A stretch of DNA of 64,000 nucleotides from assembly GCA_964016885.1 (NCBI GenBank), contig OZ024743.1, positions 341,868,001 through 341,932,000 of the forward strand. The letters run 5' to 3'. Of this stretch, positions 980 to 59,515 are shown one piece after another. Numbering within the stretch: the first letter of the stretch is position 1; every line of letters begins with the position of its first letter. The stretch comes from Eledone cirrhosa. Its lineage: Eukaryota. The position numbers and the translations under genes were made by a program. The notes below the pieces were generated by a model. That model searched no databases. It saw only the letters and a program-made list of their open reading frames with translations, and was not told the origin of the DNA.

Positions 980-1682
980 ATGAAAGACGTAAAATAAGAA
1001 AATTTTAAAATTTTAAATTTTAAAATTTTCTTATTTTACGTCTTTCATATAATTGTTCTGCATCCCCTTGCATAGAACCACAAAGTTACTAAGACATAAC
1101 ATATATATTTGCTAGCATAGGTATACATCTGTATATATATGTTGGTAGATATACTAATTCTTTATATTTATCTCCAAATTATTTGTTGAGCAAAACCTGC
1201 CGAAATTACTGCTATGGTTCATGGTAGTAGTTAGGCTCTTGTCTTATTACCACCCACTGATTAACCTCAGTGTCACGTGATTGATTCTTTAGAATTTGCC
1301 ACTGAGCTAGTAGGCAGTGAATTTTTTCAATGTCCAGGAATTTACTCCCCGCTCGCTATTTTCCATCCACTGAATTATTTTTATATGAGTTCCTTGTGTC
1401 CACGCATTGCCTGGGAACTTAGCTGAGAATAGACTCCCGGAAGACGTAAGGATTTCTCTATGGTTGCGTTGCATAACCATATTTATTCCCTTACAGAAAC
1501 TAATTAGTTGGAGTGAAAATTTTAGTAAGTTAATTTTAAAAATTTTCTTATTTTACGTCTTTCATATAATTGTTCTGCATCCCCTTGCATAGAACCACAA
1601 AGTTACTAAGACATAACATATATATTTGCTAGCATAGGTATACATCTGTATACATATGTTGGTAGATATACTAATTCTTTAT
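980..1682 (+). mobile_element. Terminally redundant non-autonomous element (period 517 nt) with short 5' inversion and one HHR
   Basis: 1024-1166 repeated at 1541-1682; palindrome 980-1049; (TA)n on both sides. Confidence 0.75.
1433..1514 (+). ncRNA. Type I hammerhead variant (U4->G)
   Basis: stem I actcc/ggagt; core cggaaga; stem II gtaagg..ccttac; gaa + palindromic actaattagt; GUU site. Confidence 0.65.
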
Positions 1683-1787
1683 ATATATATATATATATAT
1701 GGAAAGTTATATTTAAATTGTTGGGTTAACAATGAGTAAATATTTATAACTGATATAAAAGCACTCAACAAGTATTTGGAGTATATT

Positions 1788-2091
1788 TATGATATTAAAT
1801 AAATGGAAACTATATTTATAAAACCATATTTATTTCATTATATATATTTCAGGGATATCATATTAACAATATGTTATGCCTTCATCAGACAAAATACAAT
1901 ATAAACAGTCTTATAAATAAATAGATATGACATACCTTTCAATCGACTTGCATTTGGGAAGTTGATAAGACTGTTTATATTGTATTTTGTCTGATGAAGG
2001 CATAACATATTGTTAATATGATATCCCTGAAATATATATAATGAAATAAATATGGTTTTATAAATATAGTTTCCATTTATTTAATATCATA
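1788..2091. repeat. Perfect inverted repeat (127-bp arms, 50-bp spacer), one HHR per arm
   Basis: 1788-1914 is the reverse complement of 1965-2091. Confidence 0.95.
1983..2048 (+). ncRNA. Type I hammerhead (mirror copy 1831-1896 on -)
   Basis: tattttgt-ctgatga-stem II-gaa-atatatat-a-atgaaata. Confidence 0.8.
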
Positions 2092-2118
2092 TATATATAT
2101 ATATATATATATATATAT

Positions 2119-2365
2119 AAAAGAATAGAGGTGTAACACACGAGTTGTGATATATTGGTAAAAGGAAAAGAAAATGCTGTTTGCTCTAATCTGATCAGTT
2201 TTGGAAATTCCACCTGTTTTATGTGAAAAAAGTGGCTCCAGACGTACTAAAATAAGTTTCGCGCCAATGCGTGTTGCAAAAATTCTTGTGGTCAAAACAA
2301 TTTTGATTGGTTGGTAGAGGTCACGTGAATGTTAAAAATTGATTTTACGCCAAATGTAGGTTTGT
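2119..2365 (+). repeat. Dispersed repeat, internally deleted copy of 42690-43087 (opposite strand)
   Basis: shared ttcttgtggtcaaaacaattttgattggt and flanks. Confidence 0.8.
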
Positions 2366-3349
2366 CGAAGAGTGTCTTTTTTCGCCTGATTGAGAAGTCA
2401 CTGAAAAATATGTCTTTTAAGACAAATATCTGTGTGTGTGTGTGTGTGTGTGTGTGTAGTAAAGAGGTTCTTTGTTGTGATAGCGGTCAGTAGGAATGTG
2501 TGTGTAAATTGCAGTCATGTTGACAGGTCAACAGTTCAGGTGTTTATTTAGACAAATATGTGTGTGTGTGTGTGTGTGTGTGTGTGTGTGTGTGTGTGTG
2601 TGTGTGTGTGTGTGTGTGTGTGTGTGTGTGTGTGTGTGTGTGTGTGTGTGTGTGTGTAGCAGAGTAATTCGAGGTAGAGGGATCGGTCAGTAGGAATGTG
2701 TCTGTACGTGTGTGGGGGATATTTTAACATGGTGAAAGCTATTTTTCAGCTCTTGTCGTATACGGAGAAGTGTGTGTGTGTGTGTGTGTATATATGTCTC
2801 TTTGTATGTTAGTGTACGCGTGTGTATGTGTGTGTGTATATATGTGTGTGTGTATATGTATGTATGTATGTGTGTGTGTGTGTGTGTGTGTGTGTGTGCG
2901 TGTGGGTGGACCAGTATTTTTGTGATACTGGTAAAAATGGTGTACATTATTCGATATTTTCAGCAAAAACGATTCTCTCAAGAGAACATCAAAAACATTA
3001 ATAATAAAAGGTGTGAAATGATATATTGTATTCTCATAACACCAGGCGTGTGTGAGTGTCCAGATTGTACGTACTGCAATGGGAATCCATTAGGCCCTGC
3101 CGTATTGGAATACTTGTGTACAAATATGTATGTGGCCATCAGTGTGCAATGCATGTGTGCGTATATGTATGTGTGTGTGTCGGCACGTTTATATCTATAG
3201 ACATCAAAAGGTATGCACATTTGTGTATATTTGTGTTGCACCATAGAACATGTGTGTTTACGTATGTCATTGTGTTTATATGTGGATAGAGATGTATGTA
3301 TGATGTATGCTGATGTAGGTATGTAAGTTGGCGTGTGTATGTTGTGGAT

Positions 3350-56291: not shown

Positions 56292-57920
56292 ATATATATA
56301 TATATATATATATATATATATATATATATATATATATATATTATTCAAAATATTAATAAATGAAAAATATTCGCATAATCAAAATATATATTTTATTATA
56401 CATATTTCAAAGGTACAATGGTGTTTCATTACGTTTTCCTCAAACAAAATATAAGATTTGGTTTTGATTATTCAATTCCAGTAGTGGCAGTAATTCATTT
56501 CACCAACTCTCAACTTTTTTATACCACAAATAATATGATAAACTTAGAGAAGAAAAGGACGTAGAGCAAGGTAAAAATATAGAAGGGGGATGCAAAGAAA
56601 AGGAAAAGGCGAGAAATAACCCAATAAATAAATGAATAAAAGAAGAAAAAAAGATGTAAGAGAAAAAAGGGGAAATAAACCAAAAGAAAGGGAAGATGTG
56701 GGGTGAAAAAGGAAAAACAGAAAAAAGAAAACAAAGAAAAAAGAAAAAAAGAAAAAAGAAAAAAAGAAAAAAAGAAAAAAAGAAAAAAAAGAAAAAAAGA
56801 AAAAAAGAAAAAAAAGAAAAAAAGAAAAAAAGAAAAAAAGAAAAAAAGAAAAAAAGAAAAAAAGAAGAGGAATAAAGAAAAACGAAGAAGAGGAAAAGGA
56901 AAGGATGAAATAGAGTGGGAATATTAGAAATCAAAAATTTATTCACATATATCACTGAATATCGCTTGTATTGGATTACGCTTTAGCTAATTATAATTTT
57001 ATATTGTATCCAGATTATTAGGTATAGATTACTTTCTATAGCAATCAAATATTTAAGTTAATTTTAATTAATATCCTTAAATTAATTTAATTTAATTTAG
57101 CTTATTCTAGATTATTATAATTTTTTATTATGAGGTAAGATATTCTATTAATATACTACAACATTAAAAGATTTCATCTTTAAAGCCTAATTAAATAATT
57201 ATTAAATATGTATTAAAATATAATACCATGCATATATCCCCATCAATATATATAATATATTTTGTTTATTTATTATCTAAATTAAATTAAAATTTAGAAA
57301 TTCACTTTTTGTGAAAACTTAGTTATTTTTTAATTTTCATTTATTTCTTAGAATACAATTGTGGTTATATTTACTCTCTATACATTTTATTTCATTTAAT
57401 GAATGGTTATATTTACTTCTGTATTTAATTATTCTGATATATATAGTTTCCTTTTCATGATAGTCTATGTATTATTAAACTATTAATCATTATTTATTAA
57501 TACATATTTTATATTTTATATATGTTTTTTCAAGTTAATCAAAATAAATTTACGGACAATGTAAATAAAAGAAAGATAACTCATTCACAAAGTAAATGCA
57601 TTTTTAACTTATAGGGAATCTCTTCTCTCACGTCCAGCGATATTTTAAGAAACTTAAATTATCTATTTTATATATCCTAATTGATGTTTAAATAAATATT
57701 GAACTATCCTAATCAAAGCATAGGATAAAAAAGGTTTCCATCGTTAGGTAGCGAGTAATAATAGTGAAACATTGAAGAATAACATGCTCGGCTGTAAAAA
57801 AAGGTTTTATTTCTAGTATTAACAATTGTTTCATTGAGATTTGACCACTACGTATGTATGTATTTAATACTTTGATTCTCCGTTGTATCTATAAATACCA
57901 ATGTCATGTGTAAAACCTCC

Positions 57921-58033
57921 AGTATTCTGATAATTTGATCAGAGGTAAACACTGTATTTAAGGTCGAGTGGTGCAACTTCGAGTGATTAGCGGCCTTTAG
58001 ACTCACCTGTTCAATGAAACAATTGTTAATACT
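57921..58033 (+). ncRNA. Long-stem-II hammerhead (G8->A) overlapping a 50-bp inverted repeat (57789-57838/58011-58060)
   Basis: agtatt-ctgataa-ttga..tcaa-gaa-acaattgt-t-aatact. Confidence 0.7.
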
Positions 58034-58064
58034 AGAAATAAAACCTTTTTCTACAGCCGATAAT

Positions 58065-58165
58065 AATTTTTTCTACTTTTTAGCACAAGGCCACCAATTA
58101 TCCAGTGCATTACTGGGACTTTATTTTATCGGGTACGTAAGGATGAAAGGCAAAGTTAACCTCGA
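58065..58165 (-). mobile_element. tRNA-SINE family 1, 3' fragment
   Basis: match to 49541-49730. Confidence 0.8.
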
Positions 58166-58719
58166 CCGATAATGATAATAATAAATTTGAAGACTAAAAT
58201 CCAAAGAGGGCTCCATAAGGATAAATATATATTAAATATATAAGAACCATAGAGAAAATGGTTATTAAAATAACAGATTAAAGTTTAAGCAAAGAATCGC
58301 TACTTTCACTCTGAAACTAAAAAAATCAATTTGTGAACGCAGAAGTAAATATTTCGAAAAACGTTGCAACCGAAGGAAGATAGGAAGACGAGACTTTGGT
58401 TCGTGGAAACGTTCCCAGGCAAAGAACAGAAAGAAACGAAGATAATACGTCATTATTTGGAGCGGTGAAAACAATTACACGCAAAGACAAAACTACGTTT
58501 ATGGTATAAATGAAATCGTAGACTAATATTATATTAGGTGGTTCGTGGAGACGTTCCCAGGCAATGAACGGAAAAAACGTATTATCTTCGTTCTTTGCCA
58601 AGGAACGTTTCCACGAACCAAAGTATCGTCTTCTTGTCTTCCTTCGGTTGCAACATTTTTCGAAATATATACTTCTGCGTTCAGAGATTGATTTTTTAGT
58701 TTCAGAAGATCCCTTTTAA

Positions 58720-59515
58720 GAAAACCCACTGTACTAATAGGAAATGTATTATATGTAAAGTAAACCCCCGGATAAACTGTAAAACTAGAAATGTAGTCTA
58801 TAGCATAAGATGTACAGAGGGTACTTGCAGAAACATGACAGCAACATACATAGGCGAGAAAGCTCGTAGCATAGGTGAAAGGATAGACCAACACTGGGGG
58901 GAACTAAAAGGACGGAAAAACGGTTCAGTACTATACGAACATACCAGACAACAACACGACGGTAACATATACAACATAGAAATGAGAATAATATCTAAAC
59001 ATAGAAATGACCCAGCAGATAGGCAAATCAGAGAGGCCAGCGAAATAGAATTTAGAAGGCCAAGGCTAAACAGAAAAAATGAATGGAATAACAACAACAC
59101 CCAAACAAACAATACTGACCTAAGAGAAGTATAAATAAATAAATAAATAAATAAACAGACTACATAAAGATGGCGTAGGCAAACAATACAACAGAGGGAA
59201 ACATAATAGCGCCACTGATGATATTGCAGATGTGCAACGAAAGAACTTTGTTAGACTATATATATGTGTTTATTTCTATATTAAATCTGTATGTTTGACC
59301 GTTGGTCAGTCAATGGTAACATTGAGGACCGAATAAATTAAATTAACCGATATAAAAGACACAGAAGCGAAAACCAACCAAACAGTGAGTGTGTTCTGTT
59401 ATGAATTCTGACAATATTATTACACAAATATGACCCTCCCCAAGTATAACAATATTTGTTTCGACACACGATTTCATATCAAAAACCTTGCAAAACTAAT
59501 TCATCGCCGTTATAT
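58720..59515 (+). mobile_element. PLE 3' end (Naiad-like GIY-YIG) plus pLTR with HHR at 59206-59259
   Basis: CKTRNVVYSIRC..YIGE..R..H..RQIREA..LNRKNEW; ctgatga-ttgca/tgcaa-gaaa. Confidence 0.82.

Follow-up and report, generated by a model that had tools for sequence, protein, structure and literature searches.

Background

Hammerhead ribozymes of type I are known from the pseudo-long terminal repeats (pLTRs) at the 3' ends of Penelope-like elements (PLEs), where stem III is short and palindromic, many families coexist in a genome, and most copies are truncated and often arranged as opposite-strand pairs (PMC4209133, PMC8557442). Here we compare with these systems a 64,000-nucleotide stretch of the genome of Eledone cirrhosa (GCA_964016885.1, contig OZ024743.1, positions 341,868,001 to 341,932,000, forward strand; hereafter the window), in which an initial annotation had listed about 40 hammerhead motifs. 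The same features are found here, and the window is very probably a repeat-rich stretch with about two dozen intact-looking and about a dozen decayed hammerheads, predicted to be self-cutting, from at least 15 families of PLEs and of short non-coding repeats that likely borrow a Penelope enzyme.

Two further systems are relevant. Metazoan non-LTR retrozymes are non-coding tandem units with a hammerhead of type I, and in the permuted type-SGC and HRIMA-1 hammerheads the cleavage site comes first, followed by GAAA and CUGANGA (PMC10085705). The published type-SGC hammerheads come from metatranscriptomes and, as far as that source goes, none from the genome of a known organism. For the Naiad PLEs no canonical hammerhead is reported in PMC8557442, where Naiad_Ovul is tagged only 'HHR_half_core'.

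Hammerheads in the window

Type I motifs were searched by scoring stems I to III around CUGANGA, GAAA and the UH cleavage site in this order (C-G-S), with mismatches and one core change allowed. In the window, which has a GC content of 33% and at least 11 kb of short-period repeats, 23 motifs scored 9 or more, 18 of them with an exact core, while 40 dinucleotide shuffles made in 300-base blocks gave a mean of 0.225 and a maximum of 2. The threshold was picked after the scores were known; the excess over shuffles persists from 6 to 12. A strict mismatch-free scan, which is too narrow, returned just 7 motifs. The 23 motifs fall into 15 sequence clusters at 80% identity and 14 at 70%. The excess over shuffled sequence, a control proposed in the initial annotation, and its count of more than 12 families are both borne out.

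Another 12 or so motifs, decayed, halved or borderline, belong to families with passing members elsewhere; together with the 23 and two permuted motifs they bring the hammerhead-derived total to about 37. The earlier count of about 40 therefore applies to hammerhead-derived sequence, but only the 23 type I motifs and one permuted copy look intact. Among the 14 examples named earlier, 11 pass the scan while 26054, 56087 and 59206 fail, the first two being decayed copies of families with passing members elsewhere.

Exact CUGANGA cores number 44 on both strands, compared with shuffle means of 16-17.5 and a maximum of 29. Eighteen belong to passing motifs, 8 to decayed or weak ones and 2 to the permuted ones, 1 lies within stem II of another motif, and 15 are unexplained, a number that chance predicts. 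Several cores were rejected, no hammerhead partner being found: 327 and 63231 in sequence like long interspersed nuclear elements (LINEs), 21625 within a PLE open reading frame (ORF), and 16687, 30638, 40527, 42274, 49985 and others in repeats or unique DNA.

The Rfam check, also proposed earlier, gave no hammerhead match in the window at gathering scores and none among the best 150 of 333 matches at E<=10. We account for this by the long or weak stems II that the Rfam models miss, and an Rfam match is not a defining feature. A scan of the window covering each of the six block orders gave, for type II, type III, CSG and GCS, nothing beyond re-readings of type I motifs or chance level.

Genome-wide load

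The same type I scan was applied to 60 samples of 10 kb taken at round coordinates of the 3.0-Gb assembly. All lie on placed contigs: the four largest supplied 45 of them, and the small chromosomes are thinly represented (15 samples). These 600 kb gave 55 matches compared with 4 in matched shuffles. After weighting by contig class, the estimate for the genome is about 287,000 hammerheads (bootstrap 195,000-384,000), before removing about 7% false matches. The 200 kb flanking the window gave 32 matches, 24 of them in the downstream 100 kb. With 23 per 64 kb versus a genome mean of 0.9 per 10 kb, the window is a local peak of about four times the mean. The density once called 'extraordinary' is thus a real local excess, but the high load itself is a property of the whole genome. 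Every family searched has hundreds of candidates elsewhere, and a 310-bp tandem hammerhead unit that is present in the genome samples is absent from the window.

Published hammerhead counts are above 6,000 in Acropora (16 families), about 5,000 in Mytilus and 126,247 in axolotl (PMC7229834), and thousands per genome are reported for PLE hammerheads versus the 200,000-380,000 estimated here; the comparison is rough as other descriptors were used for the published counts. The bulk of the finding is known biology carried to a new lineage at large scale, with about a quarter of a million hammerheads compared with the axolotl count in 28 Gb and about 6,000 in coral. Schistosoma, with tens of thousands of hammerheads in a small genome, would have a similar density.

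In Octopus vulgaris, PLEs cover 6.83% of the genome in 190 families (PMC13282606 supplement), which is enough to account for such a load. The words ribozyme, hammerhead and retrozyme never occur in the main text of that paper, and the 2026 curated repeat annotation of this species holds 893 recently active families of 'unclassified SINE' (short interspersed nuclear element). Retrozymes may therefore account for some of what is counted as 'SINE' in octopus. Our literature search, in which few subscription papers or bioRxiv supplements were reachable, found nothing on cephalopod retrozymes, on a comparable load, or on permuted hammerheads in animal genomes or retroelements. The initial annotation had considered a radiation of this diversity possibly undescribed in a cephalopod-like genome; this agrees with our search as far as the load is concerned, but the supplement of PMC8557442 already includes a hammerhead for Hydra-1_Obim, a Hydra PLE of Octopus.

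Families with Penelope-like ORFs

The genome was searched with nine type I families and the flanks were inspected. All nine have one fixed end just beyond the ribozyme and a variable extent upstream. Five (F4, F5, F2a, F2b and F11) run upstream into a PLE ORF, with reverse transcriptase (RT) and GIY-YIG domains, at a recurring distance: 3.57 kb in F4 (locus L182, where 813 aa are open), about 2.2 kb in F5, about 1.2 kb in F2b, about 1.05 kb in F11 and 1.3-1.8 kb in F2a. Carriers could be assigned for 17 of the 23 passing motifs, 11 being 3' ends of coding families and 6 lying in retrozyme-like tandem units of 316-1,090 bp. The earlier view of type I motifs belonging to many families of PLEs and PLE-mobilised retrozyme-like units agrees with the clusters and ORF links. 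Its statement that most motifs lie in units without an ORF does not, since 11 of the 23 belong to families with an upstream RT/GIY-YIG ORF, of which the window copies are 5'-truncated.

The L182 ORF is a single frame with RT followed by a C-terminal endonuclease of GIY-YIG type; its DKT, CxCX5C linker, CxxC and CxH, without CCHH, are those given for the Hydra clade in PMC8557442. The F5 and F2a ORFs have the CxCX5C linker and align to it, and ORF relics in the window show 35-49% identity. The RWK position reads RWR in L182, L267 and a window relic, and RWK in L176. Atlas neighbours of the F4 ORF carry GIY-YIG and RVT_1. By motifs and alignment, all five families are assigned to the Hydra clade. 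F12 differs in that its hammerhead lies 80 bases past the GIY-YIG ORF of a different PLE clade; the core and stem II are conserved, and the proximal stem I has 2 bp.

The Hydra-type families are inserted in (TA)n with tandem and inverted arms and an optional tail. F4 and F5 are judged from copy identity to be young families, all 40 listed F4 copies being identical over 261 bases and 39 of 40 listed F5 copies being 100% identical. F4 carries a microsatellite-like 3' untranslated region (UTR) of 3.5 kb, and its stem II of 116 nt folds as one hairpin (z = -5.3). Through long simple-repeat UTRs the units reach about 7 kb in F4 and 4.9 kb in F5, compared with generally less than 3 kb for the Hydra elements in PMC8557442; F2a has a 4.26-kb tandem unit in L267. 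Such UTRs with kilobases of simple repeat are a possible route by which these genomes gain microsatellite-like DNA.

Some observations on these families may be added. What appears as a host microsatellite at 10100-15100 of the window (compare L182:5479-9048) is the F4 3' UTR, 54% of which is tandem repeats. Four F4 UTR copies compared are 94-97% identical over 2-3.8 kb, and a fifth is 82-88% identical. The F5 UTR contains a long T-rich simple repeat. Stems II of up to 80-150 nt are unlike those of published PLE hammerheads, and so is a U4A core throughout one family, found in 28 of 28 passing copies of F11. Another family (L038, L086, L220) has U4C in 5 of 5 passing copies, so that two families are fixed for a U4 change. 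In F2a, F2b and F4, otherwise unrelated Hydra families, stem II begins with three pairs, a C.C mismatch and two pairs, a possible conserved tertiary element.

Non-coding tandem units

F1 is a non-coding tandem unit of about 422 bp that holds a single type I hammerhead. Its GC content is 0.38 and its longest Met-ORF has 60 aa; 19 spacings between tandem hammerheads measure 410-430 bp, and the arms reach 7.5 units. It resembles the metazoan non-LTR retrozymes in the tandem unit, the single type I hammerhead, the lack of an ORF above 60 codons and the range from monomers to 7-mers (PMC7229834; bioRxiv 10.64898/2026.07.22.740005). Forty-nine of 56 arm 3' ends lie at +221 or +277 from the cut, usually one at each position per inverted pair. 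Unlike published retrozymes, F1 insertions therefore display the marks of PLEs directly, in inverted arms and two fixed 3' ends 56 nt apart. Tandem spacings without a PLE protein match were also found for F3 (about 1,090 bp; two spacings, with a 165-codon frame), F8 (316 bp; one spacing) and the 1438 family (527 bp; one spacing). These are likely non-LTR retrozymes like F1, with F3 (1.09 kb) above the size range reported for metazoan retrozymes.

Covariation among type I hammerheads was counted for F1, where the stem covariation named as a check in the initial annotation is present. In an alignment of 24 F1-type copies, 94.3% of cells are paired compared with 31-51% in slid controls, and 7 of 16 pairs vary on both sides, which none of 500 shuffles equalled. 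The 24 rows come from 56 candidates: 22 copies, window copies included, of which 21 were found by similarity outside F1-selected loci, with one older copy and one sister-family row added. Relatedness inflates the covariation, and 6 of the 7 pairs rest on few rows, several on the single sister-family row. The clearest compensatory case is a stem I pair that occurs as U.G, G.U, A-U and U-A. In contigs from public runs, which are of unrecorded kind, show presence only and include two other organisms, the commonest variants within the F1 motif are the two sides of this same pair, and none is listed in the core.

The permuted hammerhead

Cores 845 and 39841 are part of one repeat, whose blocks run from the cleavage triplet through GAAA to CUGAUGA (S-G-C). 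The motif at 39841, absent from the initial annotation, is the top non-type-I match of an order-blind scan of the window, and 15 shuffles gave none. From 67 HMM matches, 23 sequences of about seven subfamilies were picked to limit redundancy; when aligned, 94.7% of cells are paired, compared with 28-47% in slid controls, and 21 of 33 pairs covary. With its block order, all core bases present and covarying, pseudoknotted stems I and III, the motif is like the type-SGC/HRIMA-1 hammerheads (PMC10085705). It differs from type SGC in sitting in an animal retroelement and in its stem II, which has at most one direct pair and opens into a four-way junction: a fourth, 5' strand is predicted to pair with the strand after CUGANGA, make a hairpin, and pair with the strand before GAAA. 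The extra helix that joins the far sides of stems I and II in HRIMA-1 has no counterpart in the permuted alignment, where the four-way junction takes its place, and we file the motif under those modelled to work like type SGC, not HRIMA-1. The window copy at 39751..39852 has three substitutions in peripheral helices.

Next to the core, the flanking bases form a pair in 22 of 23 rows (AU 8, UA 8, UG 4, CG 2), compared with 10 of 21 for the rival pair. By eye, Naiad_Ovul has a U.C mismatch at this pair, which fits a split G block. The counts in this genome lean to an intact over a split core, the two readings being one branch-migration step apart.

The carrier is a non-coding tandem unit of 566-575 bp, unlike the Naiad PLEs, and 32 of 34 arm ends lie at about +105 or +140, 35 nt apart. 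The motif is rarer than type I, with one full and one partial match in the 600 kb of samples; a first look at the genome gave 1,978 and 720 candidates for two subfamilies. A parent ORF was sought in 50 loci of 3 kb with Hydra-, Neptune- and Nematis-type queries only and no Naiad query, and no consistent link was found. In the supplement of PMC8557442, Naiad_Ovul and the record listed ahead of it have 3' ends that by eye match the motif in the order of its strands, the hairpin, the distal stem III and the helices of the junction, and the permuted hammerhead was probably inherited from Naiad PLEs. With some reserve we favour the whole proposition that an S-G-C hammerhead, predicted to be active and with its stem II completed as a four-way junction by a fourth strand, functions in animal retroelements, supplies the ribozyme that Naiad PLEs were believed to lack and gave rise to retrozyme families of its own, in a host genome that exceeds the printed hammerhead counts we found. 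If so, a non-circular hammerhead would be in print for an animal genome for the first time, and the picture of Naiads as ribozyme-less would need revision.

Mechanism and alternative explanations

Each family has its hammerhead close to a 3' end that is the same in all copies, is truncated to varying extents on the 5' side, forms tandem as well as inverted arms, and is flanked by (TA)n. An anole PLE has two internal RT start sites and a 'tail' (PMC11167929), to which the two fixed 3' ends of F1 correspond. From that work and the copy ends, we propose that the PLE protein would nick TA-rich DNA and that its reverse transcription would start from two fixed internal positions, both lying past the ribozyme. 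As the start lies downstream, nearly every insertion, however short, would retain the ribozyme, and thus hammerheads would accumulate at about one per 11 kb. By analogy with PMC7229834 and PMC4209133, the ribozymes would cut tandem or read-through transcripts into units, which may circularise and be copied as multimers. Many would cut in dimeric form, given their short palindromic stem III; most stems III in the window are palindromes of 4-8 nt, the dimer-type design of PMC4209133. Known hammerheads include some with U.U at the stem II base and some with stem II reduced to a single pair (PMC3088659). For F1, the arm ends and the arms of up to 7.5 units suggest PLE-driven copying of multimeric or circular RNA. 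One non-coding unit would use the rewired S-G-C hammerhead with its stem II built by the four-way junction.

Several points weigh against this account. No clustering of arm 5' ends was found at the predicted cut: 2 of 56 F1 arms begin within 10 nt of it, and 4 of 34 arms of the permuted unit begin at +9 to +21. The DNA thus gives no direct cleavage footprint. In vitro, insertion of the anole PLE was unaffected by ribozyme mutations, and none of the RNA reads stopped at the cut (PMC11167929). Among 9 Xenopus retrozyme dimers, 8 failed to cleave, and F11 has spread with its U4A core. Pfam gave nothing useful on the five PLE ORFs and no family for the L182 ORF. The ORF linkage rests on distances in loci of 3-10 kb, where nested insertions add noise, with six of the 23 motifs outside the assignable 17. 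About a dozen of 58 F1 arms are short matches of 67-82% that may be a related element.

The scattered 5' ends, the anole mutants, the Xenopus dimers and the F11 core also speak for an explanation in which the motifs come from real ribozymes whose cleavage is largely dispensable, the PLE proteins copying uncut transcripts; it has the same origin and denies the processing role. The anole PLE with a dead ribozyme inserts equally well in vitro (PMC11167929), minimal PLE hammerheads are slow, and U4C is family-wide as U4A is in F11. On the other hand, cores are preserved in 71 clusters with freely differing stems, compensatory changes between subfamilies need selection on the fold at some step, and the multimer arms fit a circular template. 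We regard dispensable cleavage as possible but doubtful. The young families with identical copies make the role of PLE hammerheads directly testable.

A further explanation, close to the initial annotation, is that most motifs are a radiation of independent non-coding ribozyme elements. F1, F3, F8, the 1438 family and the permuted unit are indeed tandem units without a PLE protein match, and the unclassified SINE families of O. vulgaris could hide such units, but with 11 of the 17 assignable passing motifs in ORF-bearing families this is unlikely. That the window is a special cluster maintained by the host is highly improbable: resampling of independent 10-kb pieces never gave 23 motifs, but we account for the local excess by the clumping of insertions, as the motifs are mixed in age and strand, nested in other repeats and in many cases decayed, with the further 24 in the next 100 kb and the hundreds of candidates per family elsewhere. 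Chance matches in AT-rich, microsatellite-rich DNA, for which the expected number of unexplained cores and the shuffle matches equal to about 7% of the genome-sample hits might be cited, are refuted for the 23 as a set by the shuffles and by multi-copy families with covariation, although single low-scoring singletons could still be of this kind.

Features of the window

Table 1. Ribozyme-related features of the window, with positions counted from its first nucleotide.
Feature	Position	Strand	Remarks
Permuted hammerhead, 5'-truncated copy	817..856	+	G and C blocks only
Type I hammerhead, 1438 family	1433..1514	+	U4G in this copy; 527-bp tandem spacing; no upstream PLE ORF
Type I hammerhead F2a	1831..1896	-	left arm of inverted pair; Hydra-type PLE 3' end
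Type I hammerhead F2a	1983..2048	+	right arm
Broken PLE ORF	3403..5141	-	RT and C-terminal GIY-YIG, weak Pfam matches; carries no assigned hammerhead
Type I hammerhead, retrozyme F1	7551..7593	+	copy 7400-7862
Inverted pair of 5'-truncated F4 3' UTRs	9700..15385	.	body 96-97% identical to L182 UTR; arm ends approximate
Type I hammerhead F4	9881..10035	-	116-nt stem II; predicted cut 9891
Type I hammerhead F4	15155..15309	+	116-nt stem II; predicted cut 15299
Type I hammerhead F5	16751..16796	-	left arm of inverted pair; 3' end of young Hydra-clade PLE
Type I hammerhead F5	19321..19366	+	right arm
Broken Hydra-type PLE ORF, F11	20298..21946	-	
Type I hammerhead F11	22140..22190	+	U4A; decayed copies 29024-29146 (+), 58247-58360 (-)
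Type I hammerhead F3	25147..25197	+	decayed copy 41688-41801
Decayed F4 relative	26042..26194	+	fails scan
Type I hammerhead F2b	29567..29632	-	about 1.2 kb downstream of own Hydra-type ORF
Broken Hydra-type PLE ORF, F2b	30858..32425	-	5'-truncated
Type I hammerhead, retrozyme F1	33441..33483	-	copy 33226-33538; predicted cut 33447
Type I hammerhead	36947..37042	-	one core change; inverted just before Hydra-type ORF relic 37244-38353 (+)
Monomer of 566-575-bp non-coding tandem unit	39359..39926	+	(TA)n-rich flanks
Permuted hammerhead S-G-C	39751..39852	+	four-way junction at stem II; predicted cut after 39797; GAAA 39814-39817; CUGAUGA 39841-39847
Type I hammerhead F2c	42122..42176	-	short unit in inverted pairs; neither tandem copies nor a fixed ORF link seen
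Type I hammerhead, older F4 copy	43681..43826	+	half copy on minus strand at 43677
Type I hammerhead, older F1 subfamily	44549..44591	-	
Type I hammerhead, singleton	49331..49456	-	90-nt stem II
Type I hammerhead, singleton	50634..50689	-	decayed stem II
Type I hammerhead, singleton	53078..53161	-	49-nt stem II
Type I hammerhead, diverged F4 subfamily	55369..55509	+	
Type I hammerhead F8	55678..55723	-	decayed partner 56052-56167 (+) with GUG triplet
Type I hammerhead, diverged F2b relative	56387..56453	-	C3U
Type I hammerhead	57918..58036	+	82-nt stem II; G8A in this copy
PLE GIY-YIG end	58700..59134	+	CX4CxxC linker (Neptune/Nematis type by motif); next tandem ORF from about 59418
Minimal-type hammerhead F12	59206..59259	+	in pLTR of PLE 58700..59134; weak stem I, fails scan; second copy core 40906 (-)

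Other repeats of the window were also noted. Inverted-repeat insertions without a passing hammerhead occur at 35019-35387, 51065-51461, 50574-50969 and 977-1051. A SINE-like repeat of 100-190 bp has five copies without a hammerhead (7996-8105, 24299-24421, 32798-32987, 49541-49735 and 58062-58173). Broken LINE ORF pieces, unrelated to the ribozymes, lie at 60749-62950 (+), 63414-63776 (-) and 200-480, with APE endonuclease plus RT and RT fragments that are presumably RTE-like. Finally, a long compound trinucleotide repeat tract extends over 45955-46744.

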